A DNA stretch of 64,000 bases from assembly GCA_017936845.1 (NCBI GenBank), contig JAGBES010000023.1:26720-90719 (forward strand), in the 5' to 3' direction. The DNA comes from Bacilli bacterium. Its GTDB lineage: Bacteria; Bacillota_I; Bacilli_A; RF39; UBA660. The notes under the pieces are model-generated. The model worked only from the letters and a program-made list of their open reading frames with translations, searched no databases and was not told where the DNA came from. Of this stretch, positions 13,086 through 61,667 are shown piece by piece. Position 1 is the first letter of the stretch. Every line of letters begins with the position of its first letter. A program made the position numbers and the translations under genes.

Positions 13086-13218
13086 ATTGTATCCTCCCTT
13101 CGCCTATATCTTGTATAGACTAGCTCCGTGTAAAAACCCGATATTCTTAAATTAAATCTTTACAACTTAACCTGGTGTATCGGCAACCTCACACATCATC
13201 GCTTGTCACACATTCAAA

Positions 13219-18523: not shown

Positions 18524-19313
18524 TATGAACCACCACCTGATTATATGGAATTTCTATTTTTTGTTTATCAAATTCTAATTTTATTTGTTTTAAAACTTCT
18601 CTTTTTAAATCATATTGTTTCATAGGTTTTGTTTTGATCATTATTCTAAAATTAATCGAAGATGAATCAAGTTTTTCTATTCCTAATACTTGAATATCTA
18701 ATAAATCTTTATTATCATTTATTAGGTTTGAATTTATATTATTCAATACTTTTTCTACTTTTTCTATATTTGAATTATATGATACAGGTACATCAATAAA
18801 TTCATATGCATCATCTAAACTATGATTTATAACATCTGTTATATTACTATTTGAAATCATTTTAATATCACCTGTTATTGATTGAATCTTTGTTGTTTTT
18901 AATCCTAAGCTAATTACTTTACCTTTGAAATCACCTATTGTTACCGTATCACCGACTGCATATTCATTTTCAAATATGATTGAAAATCCTGCTAACAAAT
19001 CTTTTAGTGTATCTTGAAAAGCAAGACCAGCTACTAATCCAACAACACCAAGTGAAGTAATTATTCCTTTTGTTGATATATTATATACTTCTAAAATTGA
19101 TAAAAAACAAAAAATCAAAATAATATATTTTAATATATTATTTATCAAACTACAAATAGTTTTAGATCTTCTTTTATCCATTCTATTTAATCTTGATTTA
19201 AACATTCCTTTTATAGAATTTGTTAAAATAATATAAACAAATATACCAATTAGAATAATTATAATTGGATAAACTACTTCCTTTATTAAAACAATATCAA
19301 GTAATTTTTTCAT
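18510..19313 (-). CDS. small-conductance mechanosensitive channel (MscS family)
   Basis: 267 aa with N-terminal TM helices followed by an MscS beta-domain (GDTVTIGDFKGKVISLGLKTTKIQ). Confidence 0.8.
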   Translation of the reverse strand: MKKLLDIVLIKEVVYPIIIILIGIFVYIILTNSIKGMFKSRLNRMDKRRSKTICSLINNILKYIILIFCFLSILEVYNISTKGIITSLGVVGLVAGLAFQDTLKDLLAGFSIIFENEYAVGDTVTIGDFKGKVISLGLKTTKIQSITGDIKMISNSNITDVINHSLDDAYEFIDVPVSYNSNIEKVEKVLNNINSNLINDNKDLLDIQVLGIEKLDSSSINFRIMIKTKPMKQYDLKREVLKQIKLEFDKQKIEIPYNQVVVHNARV

Positions 19314-19318
19314 TTAAC

Positions 19319-20197
19319 CTACTCCTTAATGTTTAATACTTCTAGTATTCTATTTAAATCTGCTATATTAGTAAAAGATATTTCTACTTTATTTTCTTTT
19401 ACTACTACTCTTGTATCTAATTTATCTCTTAATATTTCTTCTACATATTTAAATTCATTGTTTTTTTCTTTTCTTATAGTTGGCTTTTTCTTTTTTTCTT
19501 CACTGCTAACTCTTTCAATATCTCGAACTGTTAAATCTTCATTTACTATTTTATTAGCAAGTTCTAGTATTTTATCATTATCTTCAAGTTTGCTAAGCAT
19601 TCTAGCATGGCCCATAGTTAAATTACCTTGGATAACCATTTTTTGAACTTCTTTTGGTAATCTAAGTAAACCTAAAATATTAGTGATATGACTTCTACTT
19701 TTCCCTACTTTTTTTGATAATTCATCTTGTGTTAAATTTAATTTTTCTATCATTGATTTATAAGCAATTGCTTCCTCTATTACATTTAAATTTTCTCTTT
19801 GTAAATTTTCTAGAAGTGCAATTTCCATCATTTGTGTATCACTAAATTCTCTTATAATAGCAGGTATCTTATTTAAACCAGCTAATTTAGAAGCCCTTAC
19901 TCTTCTTTCGCCTGCTATTATTTCATATCCTTTTATACTCTTCTTTACAATTATTGGTTGAAAGACTCCATGTTCTTTTATTGATTCTGATAATTCTTTT
20001 AATGCTTCATCATCAAATATTTTTCTTGGTTGATATGGATTTGGTCTTAGTTCATCTAAATTTATCTCTATTATTTCTTCATTTGTTGATTCTTCATATA
20101 TTGTTCTTTCCATTTGATCTAAGTCTAGATTTTCACCATTAAATAGTTGTTCTAATCCTCTACCTAGTGCCCTTTTTTTATTCTCCATTTCTATCAA
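19319..20197 (-). CDS. parB: chromosome partitioning protein ParB (Spo0J)
   Basis: ParB box GERRVRAS, an HTH, and a start that overlaps the parA 3' end. Confidence 0.92.
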   Translation of the reverse strand: MIEMENKKRALGRGLEQLFNGENLDLDQMERTIYEESTNEEIIEINLDELRPNPYQPRKIFDDEALKELSESIKEHGVFQPIIVKKSIKGYEIIAGERRVRASKLAGLNKIPAIIREFSDTQMMEIALLENLQRENLNVIEEAIAYKSMIEKLNLTQDELSKKVGKSRSHITNILGLLRLPKEVQKMVIQGNLTMGHARMLSKLEDNDKILELANKIVNEDLTVRDIERVSSEEKKKKPTIRKEKNNEFKYVEEILRDKLDTRVVVKENKVEISFTNIADLNRILEVLNIKE

Positions 20198-20963
20198 TCA
20201 CTTCCTTAGCTAAATTAATATATGCTTCTGTTCCTCTACTTGTTGGATCATAAGCTAATATTGGTTTTCCATGACTTGGTGACTCTGATAGTTTTACAAG
20301 TCTTGGAATTATTGTATCATATACTTTATCTGTAAAATAGCTTTTTATATCTTCTACTACTTCTAGACCTAAATTAGTTCTAGCATCTAACATTGTAAGC
20401 AATACACCTTCTATACTAAGTGTCGGATTTAGATTCTTTTGAGCTAATCTTATTGTATTTAATAATTGCATTATTCCCTCTAAAGCGAAAAATTCACATT
20501 GTACTGGAATAATAACTGAATCTGATGCTGTTAATGCATTTGTTGTAAGAATTCCTAAAGAAGGTGGACAATCAATAATTATATAATCAAATACTTCTTT
20601 TGCTTGATCTAAATATTTTTTTAATTGACTTCCCTTTACAAAAGATGGATCCATTTTACTCATTTCCATTAATTCAAAATCAACACCTGCTAAGTTAATA
20701 GTTGCTGGTATTAGATATAAATTTTTAAATTTTGTTTTTATTATTACTTCTTTAATTGTAGCTTCATCTTTTAATAATTCATATATACTTTTATCATAAT
20801 CAGTTTTGCTTATACCTACTCCTGTTGTTGAATTACCTTGAGGATCTAAATCAACTAAAAGTACTTTCTTTTTTAATACTCCTAATGATGCAGCAAGATT
20901 TATACTTGATGTTGTTTTACCAACACCACCTTTTTGATTAACTAAAGCAATAATTTTTCCCAT
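20178..20963 (-). CDS. parA: chromosome partitioning ATPase ParA (Soj)
   Basis: A deviant Walker A, KGGVGKTT. 261 aa. Confidence 0.93.
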   Translation of the reverse strand: MGKIIALVNQKGGVGKTTSSINLAASLGVLKKKVLLVDLDPQGNSTTGVGISKTDYDKSIYELLKDEATIKEVIIKTKFKNLYLIPATINLAGVDFELMEMSKMDPSFVKGSQLKKYLDQAKEVFDYIIIDCPPSLGILTTNALTASDSVIIPVQCEFFALEGIMQLLNTIRLAQKNLNPTLSIEGVLLTMLDARTNLGLEVVEDIKSYFTDKVYDTIIPRLVKLSESPSHGKPILAYDPTSRGTEAYINLAKEVIDRNGE

Positions 20964-31653: not shown

Positions 31654-31860
31654 TCCTCCAAAAAAAAATTACTCCCAACTAAGGGCGTAATTACGCGATA
31701 CCACCTTATTCATAACCAAAATAGTTATCTCAAACATTTAACGCATGTATACGTCTTAATTTACATATCAATTAAGCAGTTTAGGAACCATTCGAAATAT
31801 AATTAGAATATCTAGCTCTCACCTTACCTAGACTCTCTTTAAAACAATTATATTTTTCTT
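31654..31860 (-). promoter_or_regulatory. structured 5' leader with a T-box-like motif, a terminator-like hairpin and a U9 tract upstream of dut-metG (candidate T-box riboswitch)
   Basis: The minus-strand RNA contains AAUAAGGUGGUAUCGCG (T-box consensus AAUUAGGGUGGNACCGCG, with a UGGU bulge that could pair with the tRNA NCCA end). This is followed by the GCGUAAUUACGC and CCCUUAGUUGGG hairpins and UUUUUUUUU, then the RBS GGAGGAG. Upstream lies an AGAGAG...GGUGAGAGCUAG stem-I-like region. Confidence 0.4.
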
Positions 31861-31902
31861 TCCATCAAAACCTTTATTTTCGTTATTATATCATAGTTTA
31901 TT

Positions 31903-37562: not shown

Positions 37563-38405
37563 TTAATCACCTCTATGATAAATATTATAAATTTCACTTT
37601 TTACAATATTTCTTTCTTTAGCTACTTTCTTTATTGCTTCTTTTGAATCATATCCTTCTTTAATATATAAATTAACGTGTTCTATAATTGTCAAATTTTC
37701 GTAAGTATTAGTATCTGTATTACCTTCTACTATTAAAACTATTTCTCCTTTTACTTCATCAAGTTCTTTTATTACTTCTTCTATAGTACCTCTATATACT
37801 TCTTCAAATTTTTTTGATATTTCCCGGGAAATACTTATTTGTCTATTTCCCAACACTTCTTTTATATCATTTAAAGTTTTTATAATGCGATGTGGTGCTT
37901 CATAAAAAATCAAAGTTGTTTTTAAATTTTTTATTTCTTCTAGTTCTTTTTTCCTTTTTGAATCTTTACTATTTAAAAAGCCAAAGAAAGTAAATGGACT
38001 AGGATTTATACCTGATACTGTTAAAGCAGGAATAAGAGCAGTTGGACCTGGTAATGATACAACGTTAAAATCATTTTTTATTGCAATTTTAACTAATTCA
38101 TATCCTGGATCACTTATTACTGGTGTTCCCCTATCTGTTACTACTCCAACATTATATCCTTGATTTAAATAATCTAATAATATATTTTCATTTTTTGTTT
38201 CATTATAATTATGACTAGAAATTAACTTTTTATTGATATTTAAATAATTTAATAATTGTCTTGTAACTCTTGTATCTTCTGAAAATATAACTTCTACTTC
38301 TTTTAACACATTTATTGCACGTAATGTTATATCTTCCATATTTCCAATTGGAGTTGGTATCAAATATAATATAGGCTTTTTATTTATATAACTTTTTTGT
38401 GACAT
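37563..38405 (-). CDS. rsmI: 16S rRNA (cytidine1402-2'-O)-methyltransferase
   Basis: TP-methylase fold (LYLIPTPIGN...). 280 aa; a yabC/yraL homolog. Confidence 0.88.
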   Translation of the reverse strand: MSQKSYINKKPILYLIPTPIGNMEDITLRAINVLKEVEVIFSEDTRVTRQLLNYLNINKKLISSHNYNETKNENILLDYLNQGYNVGVVTDRGTPVISDPGYELVKIAIKNDFNVVSLPGPTALIPALTVSGINPSPFTFFGFLNSKDSKRKKELEEIKNLKTTLIFYEAPHRIIKTLNDIKEVLGNRQISISREISKKFEEVYRGTIEEVIKELDEVKGEIVLIVEGNTDTNTYENLTIIEHVNLYIKEGYDSKEAIKKVAKERNIVKSEIYNIYHRGD

Positions 38406-41964: not shown

Positions 41965-43590
41965 CTAATCATATTGTAATATATCACTAAATTCATTTTC
42001 TAAATTATTATCAAGTGATAACATATTTTCTATATTTGGTTCTTCTATATATTCATATACTTTCTTTTTATTATTAAATTCATCTTTTATTATATTCCAA
42101 TTATTTATATCAGTTGATATTAATTTATACGGTTCATTAAATACCTCTTTAAATAATTGATCTATCTCAATTATCTTTGAATTAAATATATTTGACAATC
42201 TAGAATCATCATATATAATTATTACATTATTATTTCCAACTGCTTTTATCGTTCCCTCTAGTATAAGAGAAGTTATCTCACTATATTTTGGTTCCATTAG
42301 CATTATTCTAATTTCATCTATTTTATTTTTAAATTCTATTAATTGTTTTTTGTTAAAATTACACAAAGTATTATTTATTCTTATATTTTCTATATTTTTA
42401 ATTATTTCTGGATTAATATTTTCTACTTTTATGTTATTAAATTTTTCTTTTTTTTGTTCTACTTGTTTTTGTTTATTTGTTGATTTTTGTTCTATTTTTT
42501 CGTCATTATTATTTTTTTCTTTATTTAAAATTTTTATTATAATTATTTCAAATATCAATTTTGGATTATTTGATTTTTTCATTTCTAAGATTCCATTATT
42601 AAAATATTCTATATTTTTTATTATTTCTTCTTCGGTTATTTGTTTTGATATTTCCTCATAAATTTCATATGATGATATGTTTTGTCTTAAATATTCTTTA
42701 GCATTAAGTGCTAATAAAATATTTCTATAGAAATTAATTATTTCTTCTGATAATTTTACAAAATTTTTACCATTATCATCATATTTATCTATAATTGAAA
42801 AAATTTGATTATACTCTTTATTTTTTATTTGTTCTATTAATTCTTTTAATTCATATTGTGGAATTGTTCCGTTTATTTCATGAACAGAATTTATTGTTAT
42901 TATATTATCTTCATATGCTATTACTTGATCTAAAATACTCAAAGCATCTCTCATACCACCATCTGCTAATCTTGAAATTTCCGTAATTGCTTCTTCTTCT
43001 ATATTAATTTTTTCTTTTTCTACTATATATTTTATTCTTTCTTTTATTTTTGAAACTGATATTTTTTTAAAATCAAATTTTTGACATCTAGACAATATTG
43101 TATTTGGAATTTTATATATTTCAGTTGTTGCTAATATAAATATAACATGTGCTGGTGGTTCTTCTAAAGTTTTTAATAATGCATTAAATGCTCCTATAGT
43201 AAGCATATGTACTTCATCTATTATATATATTTTATATTTTCCAGTTGCTGGTACTAAATTAACATTGTTTCTTAATTCTCTTATTTCATCTACTCCATTA
43301 TTTGATGCAGCATCTATTTCTATTATATCAATAGATTGTTTATTATTTATTTGTGTACAATTAACACAATCATTACAAGGTATCATATTTTTTAAATTTA
43401 AACAATTAATGGTCTTTGCTATTATTTTTGCAGTACTTGTTTTTCCTGTTCCTCTTGGACCACTAAATATATATGCATGGTTTATTTTATTATTTTTTAT
43501 TGCATTTTTTATTGTTTTAATTATTATATCTTGACCTACTACTTCATCAAAAGTTTTAGGTCTATATTTTCTATATAAAGTTTGATACAT
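41965..43590 (-). CDS. dnaX: DNA polymerase III subunit tau/gamma
   Basis: AAA+ motif GPRGTGKTS and a zinc module. An RBS GAGGTGA precedes the ATG at 43590 (MYQTLYRKYRP); the ORF track GTG start at 43605 is probably too long. Confidence 0.93.
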   Translation of the reverse strand: MYQTLYRKYRPKTFDEVVGQDIIIKTIKNAIKNNKINHAYIFSGPRGTGKTSTAKIIAKTINCLNLKNMIPCNDCVNCTQINNKQSIDIIEIDAASNNGVDEIRELRNNVNLVPATGKYKIYIIDEVHMLTIGAFNALLKTLEEPPAHVIFILATTEIYKIPNTILSRCQKFDFKKISVSKIKERIKYIVEKEKINIEEEAITEISRLADGGMRDALSILDQVIAYEDNIITINSVHEINGTIPQYELKELIEQIKNKEYNQIFSIIDKYDDNGKNFVKLSEEIINFYRNILLALNAKEYLRQNISSYEIYEEISKQITEEEIIKNIEYFNNGILEMKKSNNPKLIFEIIIIKILNKEKNNNDEKIEQKSTNKQKQVEQKKEKFNNIKVENINPEIIKNIENIRINNTLCNFNKKQLIEFKNKIDEIRIMLMEPKYSEITSLILEGTIKAVGNNNVIIIYDDSRLSNIFNSKIIEIDQLFKEVFNEPYKLISTDINNWNIIKDEFNNKKKVYEYIEEPNIENMLSLDNNLENEFSDILQYD

Positions 43591-43660
43591 TTCATCACCT
43601 CGCACTATTCAATTATATCATTTTTTATTTATTTTAAAAAGATTTTAATTTATATTTTAT

Positions 43661-43679
43661 ATGTTTCACGTGGAACATT
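43661..43679. repeat. palindromic element copy 1 (ATGTTTCACGTGGAACATT, GG variant)
   Basis: A near-perfect 19-bp palindrome centred on CACGTG, lying between dnaX and tadA. Confidence 0.9.
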
Positions 43680-43704
43680 AAATATTATATTTTTAATAAA
43701 AAAC

Positions 43705-43724
43705 AATGTTTCACGTGAAACATT
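43705..43724. repeat. palindromic element copy 2 (AATGTTTCACGTGAAACATT, a perfect 20-bp palindrome), which also forms the tadA terminator hairpin
   Basis: A perfect palindrome that overlaps the tadA stop. On the minus-strand RNA it is followed by GUUUUUUAUU. Confidence 0.9.
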
Positions 43725-44151
43725 ATCTTATATTTTGAAAAAATTTTTGAATTAAATAAAATATTTGTTTATTTTCTATTTTTTTTATTTCATATTTATT
43801 ATTTTTAAAAATTTTATTATTTTCTATATTTCCAAAATTTTTATTTGAAACAGAATAATATATTTTTTTTATTCTTGACTGAATTATTGCTCCTGAACAC
43901 ATTATACATGGCTCCATTGTTGAATATAATATACAATCATCTAAATGCCACGTTTTTAATTTTTTACAAGCTTTATTGATTGCTAATATTTCAGCATGAT
44001 AAGTAGCTATTTTATTTTTTTCTTTTTTATTATATGCTTTAGCAATTACTTTATCATTTTTTACAATAACACATCCTACAGGAATATCTCCTTTTTTATA
44101 TGCTTTTAATGCTTCTTTATATGCAATTTTAATATATTTTTTATTTTCCAA
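43723..44151 (-). CDS. tadA: tRNA-specific adenosine deaminase
   Basis: CDA zinc motifs HAE...PCIMC. An RBS AGGTGA precedes the TTG at 44151; the ORF track starts at the GTG at 44160. Confidence 0.85.
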   Translation of the reverse strand: MENKKYIKIAYKEALKAYKKGDIPVGCVIVKNDKVIAKAYNKKEKNKIATYHAEILAINKACKKLKTWHLDDCILYSTMEPCIMCSGAIIQSRIKKIYYSVSNKNFGNIENNKIFKNNKYEIKKIENKQIFYLIQKFFQNIR

Positions 44152-44162
44152 TATTATCACCT

Positions 44163-44246
44163 ACAAAAAAAAGCACACACATTTAGAGGCTATTAAGGCT
44201 GCTATCTTCCGATTCTGACCTAGTTCAAACATAAATGTTGTGCCTC
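44163..44246 (-). ncRNA. ffs: small (4.5S-type) signal recognition particle RNA
   Basis: The minus-strand RNA 5'-UUAGAGGCACAACAUUUAUGUUUGAACUAGGUCAGAAUCGGAAGAUAGCAGCCUUAAUAGCCUCUAA...U8 matches the SRP domain IV consensus (E. coli AGGUCAGGUCCGGAAGGAAGCAGCC), with compensatory changes AUC/GAU flanking the GGAA tetraloop. A terminal helix UUAGAGGC/GCCUCUAA closes it. Confidence 0.75.
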
Positions 44247-44250
44247 TAAT

Positions 44251-44279
44251 AATATACATTATTATTATTAATTTTGCAA
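44251..44279 (-). promoter_or_regulatory. SRP RNA promoter (TTGCAA-17-TATATT)
   Basis: Hexamers on the minus strand with a 17-nt spacing; the predicted TSS falls at the 5' end of the UUAGAGGC helix. Confidence 0.5.
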
Positions 44280-44316
44280 TAATTAATATTAATTATATTA
44301 TAAAATATTTATTAAT

Positions 44317-44334
44317 ATGTTTCACGTGAAACAT
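44317..44334. repeat. palindromic element copy 3 (ATGTTTCACGTGAAACAT, a perfect 18-bp palindrome)
   Basis: Lies between gyrA and the SRP RNA promoter. Confidence 0.9.
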
Positions 44335-44355
44335 TATAATTTTTTATTTATATGT

Positions 44356-44374
44356 ATGTTTCACGTGGAACATT
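44356..44374. repeat. palindromic element copy 4 (ATGTTTCACGTGGAACATT, identical to copy 1)
   Basis: A direct repeat of copy 1, 695 bp away. Confidence 0.9.
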
Positions 44375-44419
44375 CTTTATTTTAATATAATTAATAAAAA
44401 AAGTAGTATTTTATTAACA

Positions 44420-46879
44420 CTACTTTTCACTATTTTTTTCTAATTCTGACTCTTCTTCTTTATCATCTTCTTGATGTTCTATAATTGCTACATTACTTAC
44501 TAATTGATTTTCTTTTAAATTAATTAATCTAACTCCTTGAGCAACTCTTCCTGTTGTAGAAATTTGTGATATAGGTAATCTAATAATAATACCATTATTT
44601 GTTATAATCATTAAATCTTCATCACCATTTATTATTTTAAATGATACTATATTACCATTTTTTTCAGTAACATTTAGTGCTTTAACACCTTTACTTCCTC
44701 TATGAGTTTGACGATATTCTTCTACACTGGTTTGTTTTCCATAACCTTTTTCAGTTACTACTAATACATTTTGATTTTGCTCTGCTATTTCACAACCAAC
44801 ACAAATACCAGAACCTATACTTATTCCTCTAACTCCTGATGCAGATCTACCCATAATTCTTATTTCAGATTCTTCAAATCTAATCATTCTTCCATTAGAT
44901 GCACCTATAATAATATTTTTATTTCCATCTGTTTTTTTAACAGAAATTAGTTTATCATCATCTTTTAAAGTTATAGATATTTTTCCATTTTTTCTTACAC
45001 TATCAAATTCTGATATGTTAGTTCTTTTAATTAATCCTTTTTGTGTACAAAATACAATAAATTGATTTTTATCTTCTTTTTCAATAGAAAGCATAGCTGT
45101 TACATTTTCATCTTTTTCAATTGGAAGTAAATTAATTATTGGTAAACCTTTTGATTGTCTACTAAATTCAGGAACTTCATAACCTTTAATTTTATATACT
45201 TTTCCTCTATCGGTAAAGAATAATATATAATCATGAGTTGTCATTGATATTAAATTTTTAACAAAATCTTCTTCATTTGTTGTCATTCCTTTAATACCTA
45301 CTCCACCTCTATTTTGAGTTTTATATGTTTCATTATTAACTCTTTTTATATAACCTTTTTCAGTTAGTGTAATAATTACATTTTCTATTGGAATTAAAGA
45401 TTCATCTTCTATATAATCGATTGAAGTCATATCTATATTTGTTTTTCTTTCATTTGCATATTTTTCTTTTATTTCTATTAATTCTTCTTTTATTACATTT
45501 AAAATCTTTTCATCACTTGATAATATATCTTTTAAATAATCTATCAATTTATTTAATTCTTCTATTTCATTTAATATTTTACTTTTTTCTAATCCCGTTA
45601 ATCTTCTTAATTTCATTTCAAGTATAGCTTCAGATTGAATTTCATCTAAATTAAATCTATTCATTAATTGTTCTTTAGCTATTTCATCACTTTTTGATTC
45701 CTTTAGAATTTTAACAACTTCATCTATATTATCAAGAGCAATTTTTAATCCATTTAATATATGTACACGATCTTCTGCTTTTTTTAAATCATATTTTGTT
45801 CTTCTTATAATTACTTCTTTTTGAAAATCAATATAATTTGAAATAATTGCTTTTAAGCCTAAAATTTGTGGTGTACCTTGATTTAACATTAACATGTTAA
45901 TTCCATATGTTGTTTGTAATTGCGTATGTTTATATAAATTATTAAGTACAACATTTGGATTTGCATCTCTTTTAAGTTCAATAACTATTTTTAATCCATC
46001 ACTAAAAGATGTTTCTTCTCTTAAATCTGAAATACCATCAATTGCTTTATCTCTTACAAGTTCTGCAATTCTCGTAATTAAAGATGAAGTATTTACTTGA
46101 TATGGAACTTCTGTAATTATTAATTCTGATCTATCTTTTTTATCTACTATATCAACTTTTCCACGTAAAGTAATAGTTCCTTTACCTGTTTCATAAGCTT
46201 TTTTTATTCCACTATTTCCTAAAATAAATCCTCCTGTTGGAAAATCTGGTCCTTTAATATAATTCATTAAACCTAAAGTATCTATTTCAGGATTTTCTAT
46301 ATAAGCTACACATCCATCTATTACTTCTCCTAAATTATGTGGAGGAATATTTGTAGCCATACCTACAGCAATTCCCATAGTACCATTTACTAATATATTA
46401 GGAAATCTACTTGGTAAAACAACAGGTTCTTCACGAGTAGCATCAAAGTTTGGTGTAAAATCTACTGTGTTTTTCTTAATATCTCTTACCATTTCCATAG
46501 CAATTTTAGAAATTCTTGATTCAGTATAACGATAAGCTGCTGCTTGACTTCCATCAATTGCTCCAAAGTTACCATGTCCATCTATTAATGGATGACGATA
46601 ACTAAAATCTTGAGCCATTCTAACCATAGCATCATATACTGCTGTATCACCATGTGGATGATAATTACCTATAACAGCTCCAACTGTTTTAGCACATTTT
46701 ACATATCCTTTATCTGGAGTAAATCCAGATTCTAACATTGTATGTAAAATTCTTCTATGAACTGGTTTTAATCCATCTCTCAAATCAGGTAAAGCACGAG
46801 CTATTATAACACTCATTGAATATTCAATAAATGAATCTTTCATTTCTTTTACTATATTATTTGATTCTAATTTATCCAT
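44420..46879 (-). CDS. gyrA: DNA gyrase subunit A
   Basis: 819 aa, with the active-site region AAMRYTE and an acidic C-terminal tail. Confidence 0.96.
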
Positions 46880-50041: not shown

Positions 50042-50491
50042 TTATAAATTCTTTCTTTTTCTAAGTACTGATTCCAACATTGTTGCTCTTAAAATTTGAT
50101 TTTGTAATGATTCATAAGAAATATTAACTATTATTTCTTCATTATTATTAAATATAATTTTAGAAGAACCATTAAATTTTTTGTAACTATTTATATTATT
50201 AAGTGATATCCAAAAACAATCTGAAAATCTTGGTGAACTAGTTGGAAAAAAAATAATTTCTCTTGTTTCTTCTACGACAATTGGACATTTATAATTTATT
50301 CCTATTAAATTTTTAGTACCCTCTTGTCTACCTATATATGAACTTCCAAAATACTTACAACTATAATCTACTATTTCAGTTGTTTTTCTTTTAACTATAA
50401 AATTATTATCAATTTCAATAACTTTCGAAATTTTTGAATCAATTGGTATAATAGCTAAAGTATTTATATTTATTTCATAATTTTCTAACAT
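50042..50491 (-). CDS. comK: competence transcription factor ComK homolog
   Basis: 149 aa. SCKYFGSSYIGRQEGT, PIVVEETREIIFFPTSSPRFSDCFWIS and ISYESLQNQILRATML match the conserved ComK blocks SCRFFGSSYAGRKAGT, PPIMVDPSNQIFLFPTLS...CGWIS and ISYNSFENQVYRTAWL. A strong RBS AAAGGGGGAGGTG is present. Confidence 0.75.
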   Translation of the reverse strand: MLENYEININTLAIIPIDSKISKVIEIDNNFIVKRKTTEIVDYSCKYFGSSYIGRQEGTKNLIGINYKCPIVVEETREIIFFPTSSPRFSDCFWISLNNINSYKKFNGSSKIIFNNNEEIIVNISYESLQNQILRATMLESVLRKRKNL

Positions 50492-53213: not shown

Positions 53214-53289
53214 ATTATTTAACCTTCACCACCTTTAAGAATAAATACAAATATATTTTACCTTAAAAATAAATAAAAAGCAAAGAAAA

Positions 53290-53522
53290 TGTGGAAAAAT
53301 ATAATAATTATATATTTTACACATATAAAAATATTAAAAATAAAGAAAAAAAAGAGTTTTATACATTATTTGTGGAAAACTTAATGTTAAAAAAAATAAA
53401 TGTTAAAAAATAATTAACAATATATGTGGAAAAAATAAAATTTAATTAAAAATAATAATAAAAAAATATATAATAATGTGTAAAAAAATAAAAAAAATAA
53501 TAATATTGAAAATTTTTCCACA
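53290..53522. promoter_or_regulatory. oriC DnaA-box cluster in the dnaA/rpmH divergent spacer
   Basis: TGTGGAAAA at 53290-53298, 53371-53379 and 53426-53434. The reverse form TTTTCCACA at 53514-53522. Degenerate TGTGTAAAA at 53477-53485 and its reverse at 53315-53323. All lie within 240 bp of AT-rich DNA. Confidence 0.7.
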
Positions 53523-53536
53523 ATATAAAAAATAAA

Positions 53537-53565
53537 TTGACAAATAATAAAAAAATCTATATAAT
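53537..53565 (+). promoter_or_regulatory. consensus sigma-A promoter of rpmH (TTGACA-17-TATAAT)
   Basis: Perfect hexamers at 53537..53542 and 53560..53565, upstream of the rpmH RBS GGAGGTG. Confidence 0.65.
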
Positions 53566-53607
53566 TAACTAAGCAAACAAATTTTATCGATACAGGAGGT
53601 GTATAAT

Positions 53608-53730
53608 ATGAAAAGAACTTATCAACCAAATAATAGAAGAAGAAGTAAAAAACAAGGTTTTTTTGCTAGAATGAAAACAAAAATAATAAATAACAGAAGA
53701 AGAAAAGGACGTAAAGTATTATCACGTTAA
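53608..53730 (+). CDS. rpmH: 50S ribosomal protein L34
   Basis: A 40-aa ORF not in the ORF track: [40 protein letters not shown]. Confidence 0.9.
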
Positions 53731-53758
53731 TAAAATCACTGTATTAATAGTGATTTTT
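53731..53758 (+). terminator. hairpin plus T-tract between rpmH and rnpA (attenuator/terminator)
   Basis: AATCACT-gtattaat-AGTGATT followed by TTTTTT. Confidence 0.5.
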
Positions 53759-53779
53759 TAATATAAGAGGATGATCTAA

Positions 53780-59755: not shown

Positions 59756-59851
59756 TTTTTCTTTTTTTATTGAAATTATTTCCCGGAAAATATTGAAAAT
59801 TAAAAAAAAATATAGTATTATTATATGGAATAGGAAAAGGGGAAGATAAAA

Positions 59852-61372
59852 ATGAGAATGAGGAAGGAAGTTTTTATTCTTAGCATTGATGATATTTTAC
59901 CAAATAGATTTCAACCAAGAATAAAATTTGACGAAAAAGCAATTTTAGAATTAGCAGAATCAATAAAAAAACATGGTGTAATACAACCAATTATTGTTAG
60001 AAAAATATCGGATAAATATGAAATAATTGCGGGAGAAAGAAGATATAAAGCAAGTGTTATTGCAGGAAGAAAAACAATACCAGCTATAATAACAGATGTA
60101 GATGATAAAGAGAGTGCTGAAATAGCTTTAATAGAAAATGTTCAAAGACAAGACATGACACCTATAGAAGAAGCAATATCTTATAAAAAAATATTAGATA
60201 TGGGTTATTTAAATCAATCAGAATTAGCTTTAAAATTAGGAAAAACTCAATCAACAATTGCTAATAAATTAAGACTTTTAAATTTATCGGATGAAGTACA
60301 AGAAGCATTATTAGATGAAAAAATATCTGAACGTCATGCAAGATCTTTATTAAGATTACAACAAAAAGATCAAAAAGATGTATTAAATAAGATAATAACA
60401 GAAAGATTAACAGTTAGAAAAACTGATCAATTAATAAATCAAATTTTATCAAATGATAATGATTCAAAAAATAATCAAAATAGTGAAAAAATAATTACAA
60501 AAAATAATCAAATAATAGAAGAAAAAGGTGATAATATGAATAATGAGAATAATAATATAAATAATAGTTTTAATATACCAACAAATCCAATAATAGAAAA
60601 TGAATCAAATTCAAATCCAGGATTTATGAATATATCAGATATAGAAAATAATGCGCAAGATATAAATAATAATCCACAACCTCAAAATAATCCATTTAAT
60701 CCTTTTGGAAACTCACAACCATTTAATCCATTTATGCAACCAACAGAACAACCAATTCAACAAATGGAACAACAAGTTGAACCACAACAATTTAATGAAC
60801 CAATAGCACAAGAAAATAATCAAATGGAACAACCATTTAATCCATTTATGCAACCATTAGAACAACCAACTCAACAAATGGAACAATCAGTAGAACCACA
60901 ACAATTTAATGAACCAATAGCACAAGAAAATAATCAAATGGAGCAACCATTTAATCCATTTATGCAACCAGTAGAACAACCAATTCAACAAATGGAACAA
61001 TCAGCAGAACCACAACAATTTAATGAACCAATAGCACAAGAAAATAATCAAATGGAACAACCATTTAATCCATTTATGCAACCAACAGAACAACCAACTC
61101 AACAAATGGAACAACCATTTAATTCATTTGTTCAATCAACGCCAATTTATGATCAATCTTACTCAGATTATCCATTACCAGAAGATAAAGAATTAACTCC
61201 ATTAATGCCAAATATGCAACAAGAACCAGAAAGAAGAGCTGACTTGAGAACTGTTATTAATATTATAAGAGATTGTACTAATTCAATAGAAGCAATGGGA
61301 TATAAAATAGATGTTGATGAATTAGATTTTGAAAATACATATGAATTTTCAATAAAAATTGAAAAAGAATAA
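59852..61372 (+). CDS. ParB/Noc-family protein (N-terminal ParB domain plus HTH) with a long Q/P/N-rich tandem-repeat linker and a short C-terminal domain
   Basis: The N-terminal 190 aa carry ParB motifs (IIAGERRYKAS, an HTH). Residues ~290-420 consist of three and a half copies of a 38-aa unit (PFNPFMQPxEQPxQQMEQxxEPQQFNEPIAQENNQMEQ). The gene sits in the noc position after rsmG, but without a parA partner. Confidence 0.85.
   Translation: MRMRKEVFILSIDDILPNRFQPRIKFDEKAILELAESIKKHGVIQPIIVRKISDKYEIIAGERRYKASVIAGRKTIPAIITDVDDKESAEIALIENVQRQDMTPIEEAISYKKILDMGYLNQSELALKLGKTQSTIANKLRLLNLSDEVQEALLDEKISERHARSLLRLQQKDQKDVLNKIITERLTVRKTDQLINQILSNDNDSKNNQNSEKIITKNNQIIEEKGDNMNNENNNINNSFNIPTNPIIENESNSNPGFMNISDIENNAQDINNNPQPQNNPFNPFGNSQPFNPFMQPTEQPIQQMEQQVEPQQFNEPIAQENNQMEQPFNPFMQPLEQPTQQMEQSVEPQQFNEPIAQENNQMEQPFNPFMQPVEQPIQQMEQSAEPQQFNEPIAQENNQMEQPFNPFMQPTEQPTQQMEQPFNSFVQSTPIYDQSYSDYPLPEDKELTPLMPNMQQEPERRADLRTVINIIRDCTNSIEAMGYKIDVDELDFENTYEFSIKIEKE
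60719..61114 (+). repeat. 114-bp in-frame tandem repeat, about 3.5 copies at more than 95% identity, inside the ParB/Noc-like gene
   Basis: Units begin at 60719, 60833, 60947 and 61061 (partial), and differ by only a few substitutions. Confidence 0.9.
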
Positions 61373-61424: not shown

Positions 61425-61667
61425 ATGCAAGAAAAAAAAGATTTATATGTTAATGAAGAAGTTTTAAGAAAATGTGGTAAATCAAATGAAGAAATAAAAC
61501 AATTAGCAATAAAAAATGGTAGAGAATTTGCACGACAAAATTATGAAAATTTTAATATACTAGGAAAATTTTACCTTCAAAATTTTATGTTAGGAATTCA
61601 ATTAGAAACACAAAAAATAGAAGAAGAAGAAAAACAATTAGCTGAAGAAAAACCAAAAGCATTATAA
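61425..61667 (+). CDS. hypothetical protein (80 aa)
   Basis: A strong RBS AAGGGAGGA, an intrinsic terminator immediately downstream, and a charged helical sequence. No family recognised. Confidence 0.5.
   Translation: MQEKKDLYVNEEVLRKCGKSNEEIKQLAIKNGREFARQNYENFNILGKFYLQNFMLGIQLETQKIEEEEKQLAEEKPKAL

Follow-up and report, generated by a model that had tools for sequence, protein, structure and literature searches.

What are the four copies of a 16-bp palindrome that stand, in two close pairs, around the small ffs-tadA unit near the replication origin of this uncultured member of the Bacilli? The first-pass annotation read their core as the Firmicutes parS consensus and the imperfect copies, which carry a G, as the B. 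subtilis parS on the complementary strand. Both readings are borne out in the window (the whole stretch of DNA analysed here, 64 kb long): a pattern search with the parS consensus TGTTNCACGTGAAACA returned four sites that match with no mismatch on at least one strand, the G variants reading as TGTTCCACGTGAAACA on the minus strand (Table 1), and a direct read of the window gave AATGTTTCACGTGAAACATT at 43705-43724. By chance, only 0.10 matches per window are expected even when up to two mismatches are allowed (dinucleotide-preserving shuffles), and the eight strand-matches to the consensus were reached in none of 100 shuffles; no fifth credible parS appeared in the 64 kb, even at three mismatches. 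At positions 2 and 7 of the half-site, all four carry G and A, respectively, which is the parS pattern; they are therefore not NBS, the related motif bound by Noc, which has A and C there.

Table 1. Coordinates of the features discussed (positions in the 64-kb window, except for the tandem arrays, which are given in the coordinates of the related loci that carry them).
Feature	Position	Strand	Remarks
Spo0J (canonical ParB)	19319-20197	-	predicted binder of the four parS sites
Soj/ParA Walker ATPase	20178-20963	-	directly upstream of spo0J; KGGVGKT motif; ParA-family matches
NBS, perfect	37818-37833		TATTTCCCGGGAAATA; inside rsmI-like ORF
dnaX	41965-43590	-	true start ATG at 43590 (MYQTLYRKYRP)
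dnaX extended -10 element	43612-43620	-	TGATATAAT; promoter and ribosome-binding site pattern kept in relatives
parS-1	43662-43677		G variant, TGTTTCACGTGGAACA on + strand, TGTTCCACGTGAAACA on - strand; between tadA terminator and dnaX promoter
Putative intrinsic terminator of ffs-tadA unit	43698-43729	-	parS-2 palindrome with extended arms (AAGAUAA...UUGUUUU) and U6 tract
parS-2	43707-43722		perfect palindrome TGTTTCACGTGAAACA; begins 1 nt past tadA stop codon
TadA-type deaminase ORF	43723-44160	-	MafB19-deam / dCMP_cyt_deam_1 matches
ffs (small SRP RNA)	44156-44254	-	Rfam RF00169, 58.7 bits (gathering score 40)
parS-3	44318-44333		perfect palindrome TGTTTCACGTGAAACA; ~64 bp upstream of ffs 5' end
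parS-4	44357-44372		G variant, TGTTTCACGTGGAACA on + strand, TGTTCCACGTGAAACA on - strand; same orientation as parS-1; directly past gyrA terminator
gyrA intrinsic terminator	44398-44428	-	hairpin, then U-tract; -13.1 kcal/mol, z -4.3 (RNA folding)
gyrA	46879-44420	-	upstream end of minus-strand locus
oriC region	53214-53779		dnaA-rnpA spacer; GC-skew minimum; four TTTTCCACA boxes
NBS with one mismatch	59777-59792		TATTTCCCGGAAAATA; rsmG-noc spacer, 60 bp upstream of Noc-type gene
Noc-type ParB paralog	59852-61372	+	506 aa; adjoins rsmG; intact ParB_N and HTH_ParB domains
L008 tandem parS array	18848-19472		24 x 26 bp, 100% identity
L002 tandem parS array	18872-19223		10 x 37-38 bp
L030 tandem parS array	18939-19588		10 x 63 bp
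L028 tandem parS array	18853-19252		7 x 64 bp
L027 tandem parS array			7 x 42 bp

The four copies are non-tandem and lie within 711 bp of intergenic DNA. On the minus strand, the order from 5' to 3' is gyrA, the gyrA terminator, parS-4, parS-3, ffs, tadA, parS-2, parS-1, the dnaX promoter, and dnaX; the description of two closely spaced pairs around a tiny transcription unit is therefore accurate, with start-to-start spacings of 45 bp in the left pair and 39 bp in the right pair, which flank ffs and the tadA ORF. The true start of tadA is likely a TTG at ~44151, past an AGGTGA ribosome-binding site. The terminal 3' helix of ffs and its U8 run abut or overlap the ribosome-binding site or start of tadA (44151-44165 in the window, 19393-19397 in the related locus L002), so that tadA apparently relies on the ffs transcript being read through or processed. 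The order of the genes here, ffs-tadA-dnaX, differs from that of B. subtilis, which we take to be tadA-scr-dnaX.

The origin was placed by the GC-skew minimum at ~53-54 kb of the window, the divergence of dnaA and rnpA, and four TTTTCCACA boxes at 53290-53522. DnaA boxes counted over the whole window are not enriched (27 observed vs 24 expected), and the informative signal is confined to the local TTTTCCACA cluster at 53.3-53.5 kb. The parS cluster (43.66-44.37 kb) is thus ~9-10 kb from oriC, in agreement with the distance of about 9 kb first proposed. Among other features of this chromosomal region, a ComK-family ORF (50042-50491, minus strand; Pfam E-value 1.6e-44) lies between dnaN and recF, a position that it keeps in essentially all loci of the clade covering that interval; a T-box leader (31678-31877, minus strand) scores exactly the Rfam gathering score; and an S10-Clostridia ribosomal-protein leader (13100-13207, minus strand) precedes a ribosomal protein operon.

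The window also encodes a candidate reader of these sites. The helix-turn-helix of its canonical ParB, GKSRSHITNILGLLRLPKEVQKMVIQGNLTMGHAR, gives R-I-R-G at the four specificity positions (the equivalents of R173 and G201 are present), and the protein carries a GERRVRA CTP-binding motif and an N-terminal LGRGL peptide. The four positions are RTAG in ParB and QKKR in Noc (Jalal et al., PMC7383237); R173 and G201 do not vary among ParB orthologs, and every parS-specific variant has R173 (PMC7383237). In the PDB, the best match of this protein is B. subtilis Spo0J (6SDK, 229 bits, vs 164 bits for Noc), the reverse of the ranking obtained for the ParB-family paralog next to rsmG. Residues, CTP-binding motif, and PDB ranking together indicate that the window encodes the cognate reader of parS. 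Its neighbor Soj is 62% identical to B. subtilis Soj, to be taken as an approximate value, and the Soj assignment rests also on the KGGVGKT motif and the ParA-family matches; the Spo0J assignment was re-checked against the PDB sequences.

The soj-spo0J pair lies between ftsH and an mscS-like gene, ~33 kb from oriC and ~23.5 kb from the parS sites, and is not adjacent to them; the scan of the 64-kb window found no parS inside spo0J. Judging from these sequences, the predicted partner of the four parS sites is the soj-spo0J pair (19319-20963), and not the Noc-like protein beside rsmG. Among the related loci, L025 and L038 keep the Bacillus-like order rsmG-noc-soj-spo0J, and L034 has rsmG-soj-spo0J; in L025 and L038, which extend as far as the gyrA-ffs spacer, that is still where the parS cluster lies, and the L034 contig stops in a parS array just beyond gyrA.

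The rsmG-adjacent paralog had been noticed earlier as an orphan ParB/Noc-like protein of either Spo0J or Noc specificity. Its HTH residues are Q-K-N-R, its orthologs in the clade likewise have QKNR, and its PDB matches are led by Noc (7NFU, 194 bits), followed by B. subtilis Noc (7OL9, 174 bits) and Spo0J (6SDK, 166 bits); it is therefore Noc-type and not Spo0J-type, and the parS partner is the separate soj-spo0J pair. The combination of Q173 and R201 with a single lysine at 179 or 184 leads to a preference for NBS (PMC7383237). Genomic NBS motifs accompany these residues of the QKKR type: the window contains two (Table 1), and the one in the rsmG-noc spacer is found at the same position in L002, L003, L009, L011, L016, L019, and L025. 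Given the QKNR residues and the separate NBS motifs, we predict that the Noc-type paralog binds NBS and leaves the four palindromes unbound, and the conserved NBS upstream of its gene suggests loading or autoregulation at its own gene. It may nevertheless be an NBS-binding protein with a different function. B. subtilis Noc needs an amphipathic membrane-targeting helix at its N terminus (aa 1-14) to function (PMC4331003); in the paralog, only ~6 residues precede the ParB N-domain, the frame offers no start further upstream, and the helix is absent. In addition, its score against the NCBIfam Noc model (287.5) is below the cut-off of 315. The Q/P/N-rich linker of the protein contains a 114-bp (38-aa) repeat in 3.5 tandem copies (60715-61114, 95% identity), and orthologs in the clade are 440-809 aa long. 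An 80-aa ORF (61425-61667, plus strand), which lies between this gene and uvrB, has no match in Pfam or NCBIfam.

We collected relatives of this genome by a DnaA-based scan of species-representative genomes, which yielded ~50 loci of one clade; these are MAGs of uncultured gut "Bacilli" or "Mycoplasmatota" (GC 22-31%, DnaA 57-96% identical to that of the window), including one complete chromosome of 1.256 Mb (OZ006994.1, from which L008 comes). The sequence scanned comprised the 64-kb window and 10 kb on either side of dnaA in the relatives. Gene order around oriC is conserved among them, and the gyrA-ffs spacer carries between 1 and 24 parS copies in all loci whose sequence continues for more than ~150 bp beyond gyrA; parS-3 is positionally homologous to this clade-wide cluster. 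In 51 related sequences (988 kb), we found 171 sites at up to one mismatch, all of them in the gyrA-dnaX interval and none outside it. At this locus, ~36 related genomes strictly preserve the 16-mer amid changing surroundings: positions 2-4, 6-11, and 13-15 are 100% conserved (a result partly constrained by the retrieval of sites at up to one mismatch), position 5/12 is T/A or C/G, and spacing (26-435 bp), copy number (1-24), and flanks are variable. Such freedom of spacing, copy number, and flanks around an invariant core is the mark of selection for a 16-mer that a protein binds. In 94% of the clade sites, the base next to each end is A or T, a preference that is weaker in unrelated high-GC contigs (~60% vs a background of 22%); the effective motif extends over 18-20 bp, as (A)A-TGTTYCACGTGRAACA-T(T).

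Many of the clusters in the relatives are perfect or near-perfect tandem arrays (Table 1), whose period differs between species (26, 28, 37, 42, 53, 63, or 64 bp). Ten short-read contigs end inside arrays, so that the counts for these are minima. The parS array and tadA are separated by ffs in each of the seven loci tested; sites are also found past tadA only in the window, in its nearest relatives (L001-L003), and in L005 and L048. This restricted distribution indicates that the layout of two pairs seen in the window is a local version of a centromere that the whole lineage has at gyrA-ffs.

The first-pass annotation also claimed that one of the sites doubles as the tadA terminator. As RNA, parS-2 with its flanks is predicted to form a 13-bp stem (AAGAUAAUGUUUC/GAAACAUUGUUUU) followed by Us, with a folding energy of -13.9 kcal/mol (z -4.9; none of 200 shuffles was as stable), on a par with the gyrA terminator (-13.1 kcal/mol); a stable stem-loop followed by a U-tract at the end of the unit is what a Rho-independent terminator would look like. 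A generic terminator scan of 43400-44600 returned no matches, and it missed this site because it required at least three G-C pairs and the stem has only two. Comparison with the relatives points the same way: in most of them an unrelated terminator (A-tract, hairpin, and T-tract) encloses the tadA stop codon and is followed by the dnaX promoter, and in the window, L001, and L003 this terminator is replaced by a parS with extended arms. The same placement of a parS after the tadA stop is seen in the closest relatives L001, L002, and L003; in L003, the site is a perfect 26-bp palindrome. The arm extensions of parS-2 exceed what ParB needs. Folding and positional homology with the terminators of the relatives thus favor the claim, and on this sequence evidence we consider it reasonably likely that site 2 doubles as the stem of the ffs-tadA intrinsic terminator. 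A dual role would not be general, since a separate terminator coexists with the post-tadA parS in L002, L005, and L048, and it is not the reason for the existence of the motif.

Could the palindromes then act purely at the RNA level, as terminators or as REP-like stabilizing hairpins around ffs-tadA, with a coincidental match to parS? Site 2, with its strong hairpin and U-tract at the tadA stop, and site 3, with a modest hairpin (-7.0 kcal/mol), would be in keeping with this; however, sites 1 and 4 are imperfect palindromes whose RNA folds (-3.1 kcal/mol, z -0.37, and -1.5 kcal/mol, z -0.47, respectively) are no better than those of shuffled sequences. Because the imperfect G variants fold poorly as RNA, selection appears to act on the DNA 16-mer and not on the hairpin. 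Moreover, sites 3 and 4 lie between the separate gyrA terminator and the ffs promoter, and are therefore probably barely transcribed, the 16-mer fits the 16-bp protein-binding consensus exactly, and up to 24 repeats spaced at 26 bp, as found in relatives, would make no sense for a terminator. A purely RNA-level role, which accounts neither for three of the four sites nor for the arrays of the relatives, is very improbable. We give about as little credence to the possibility that the sites are bound by the Noc-type paralog and represent nucleoid-occlusion-type sites and not a Spo0J centromere. Its gene is the ParB-family gene closest to oriC and its ParB_N and HTH_ParB domains are intact, but its residues lack the R173 that parS-specific variants always have (PMC7383237), the four sites bear the parS bases and not those of NBS, genuine NBS motifs exist separately, one of them conserved in relatives, and a canonical ParB is encoded in the same window.

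The remaining alternatives accept a DNA-level role and assign it differently. Operators of another CACGTG-recognizing transcription factor, controlling ffs, tadA, or dnaX, would suit the placement of sites 1 and 3, which lie ~20-40 bp upstream of where the -35 regions are predicted in the dnaX and ffs promoters, respectively. No candidate regulator is encoded nearby, however; a copy number of 1-24 and a varying distance to ffs among relatives are atypical for an operator; and the identical motif occurs across phyla, where it usually adjoins parA-parB in unrelated metagenomic contigs (among the matches listed), so that we attach barely any probability to this explanation. An equally faint chance is left to the idea that a mobile element or plasmid centromere once inserted around ffs-tadA and left these repeats behind as relics, which would then not be a working chromosomal centromere; in its favor, the repeats bracket a small gene pair and the two outer ones have their variant base in common. 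The parS region contains no mobility genes, the window's parS region had no match among phages, and the L008 tandem array had none among plasmids (PLSDB); we dropped a mobile-element or plasmid origin for this lack of plasmid or phage similarity. Furthermore, parS is found at this locus in genomes with DnaA identities of only 57-96%, which implies long-term vertical retention.

We conclude that the four palindromes are very probably chromosomal parS sites that make up the origin-proximal centromere of this genome, with the window's Spo0J as their predicted partner. The identification put forward in the first-pass annotation is upheld by the exact consensus, the proximity of the origin, the parS-type ParB and the Soj encoded in the window, and the deep conservation of motif and position in relatives. 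In the mechanism that we propose, dimers of Spo0J would recognize each 16-mer through the helix-turn-helix, bind CTP, close into clamps, and slide onto the flanking DNA, including oriC 9-10 kb away; the partition complex would interact with Soj/ParA, and, by analogy with B. subtilis, SMC would probably be loaded at these sites. Several adjacent parS sites probably raise the loading rate. More speculatively, parS on both sides of the strongly expressed ffs could permit loading on either side of a transcriptional roadblock. The Noc-type paralog would ignore the four sites and bind its own NBS motifs.

Across the lineage, parS shows a satellite-like pattern: the gyrA-ffs spacer holds anywhere from 1 to at least 24 copies, which are homogenized within genomes. 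An evenly balanced case can be made that the centromere of this lineage left the usual rsmG-parA region, that it has since evolved fast in the gyrA-ffs spacer with a functional turnover of copy number, and that one copy may have been co-opted as the ffs-tadA terminator in the subclade of the window.

These results give the repeats a concrete, conventional function, and locate the centromere in an uncultured, low-GC lineage of the gut that is poorly known, has small genomes (1.26 Mb in the complete relative), and has kept a full Soj/Spo0J/parS set together with a Noc-type paralog. They also call for caution in annotation: parS should not be assigned to the nearest ParB-family gene before the four specificity residues have been checked. 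The lineage-wide arrays could serve as a natural series for relating the number and spacing of parS to ParB loading, and site 2 is a candidate for a single DNA palindrome that serves both a DNA-binding protein and RNA termination. Current models are unchallenged by these findings.

Closely spaced parS sites are not a novelty in themselves. A metagenome scan for three consensus sites with periods of 24-54 bp gave at least 120 contigs (L081-L200) over a wide range of GC (25-67%), and we therefore rejected novelty of the arrangement in favor of a common architecture. Among the matches listed, most triplets are in the rsmG-parA spacer, upstream of parA, a large group with GC of ~55% has an exact 39/39-bp spacing, and triplets next to gyrA, tadA, or dnaX occur only in low-GC contigs of this clade. 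The present case stands apart in its location, in being uncoupled from parAB, and in its turnover of copy number. A literature search found no description of natural chromosomal tandem parS arrays, which is absence of evidence only.

In model species, chromosomes carry 2-22 sites of the consensus TGTTNCACGTGAAACA, for example 10 in Corynebacterium, 22 in Myxococcus, 5-7 in Caulobacter, and 3 in Mycobacterium (PMC7022226 Table 1). Among the closest known systems is parS/Spo0J-Soj of B. subtilis, with 10 sites, eight of them in the ori domain. Similar to B. subtilis, the window has the identical 16-bp sequence (TGTTCCACGTGAAACA and the T variant are both within the consensus), sites near the origin, a ParB with RxxG residues together with Soj, and a coexisting Noc paralog with NBS. 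In B. subtilis, however, the sites are dispersed over many kb and mostly within genes, whereas those of the window are intergenic and gathered around ffs-tadA; in addition, spo0J contains no parS here and soj-spo0J stands beside ftsH, far from oriC. The related Noc-NBS system, a ParB-family protein with a related 16-bp palindrome, is likewise represented in the window, but the four sites differ from NBS at both discriminating positions of each half-site.

In having several consensus sites close together near oriC, the locus resembles the clustered parS of Corynebacterium, Myxococcus, Caulobacter, and Mycobacterium, and its spacing resembles the 37-50 bp typical of the metagenomic parS triplets. 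Those other clusters are usually in or next to rsmG-parA-parB, whereas in this clade they occupy the gyrA-ffs(-tadA-dnaX) spacers, uncoupled from parAB, and in relatives of the window, unlike in those clusters, they expand into perfect tandem arrays of up to 24 x 26 bp. The sopC centromere of plasmid F consists of tandem repeats (12 x 43 bp). Similar to sopC, the L008, L002, and L030 arrays are head-to-tail repeats with one ParB-type palindrome in each unit; unlike sopC, the window has four non-tandem copies of the chromosomal consensus, and the L008 array bears no similarity to the plasmids in PLSDB.
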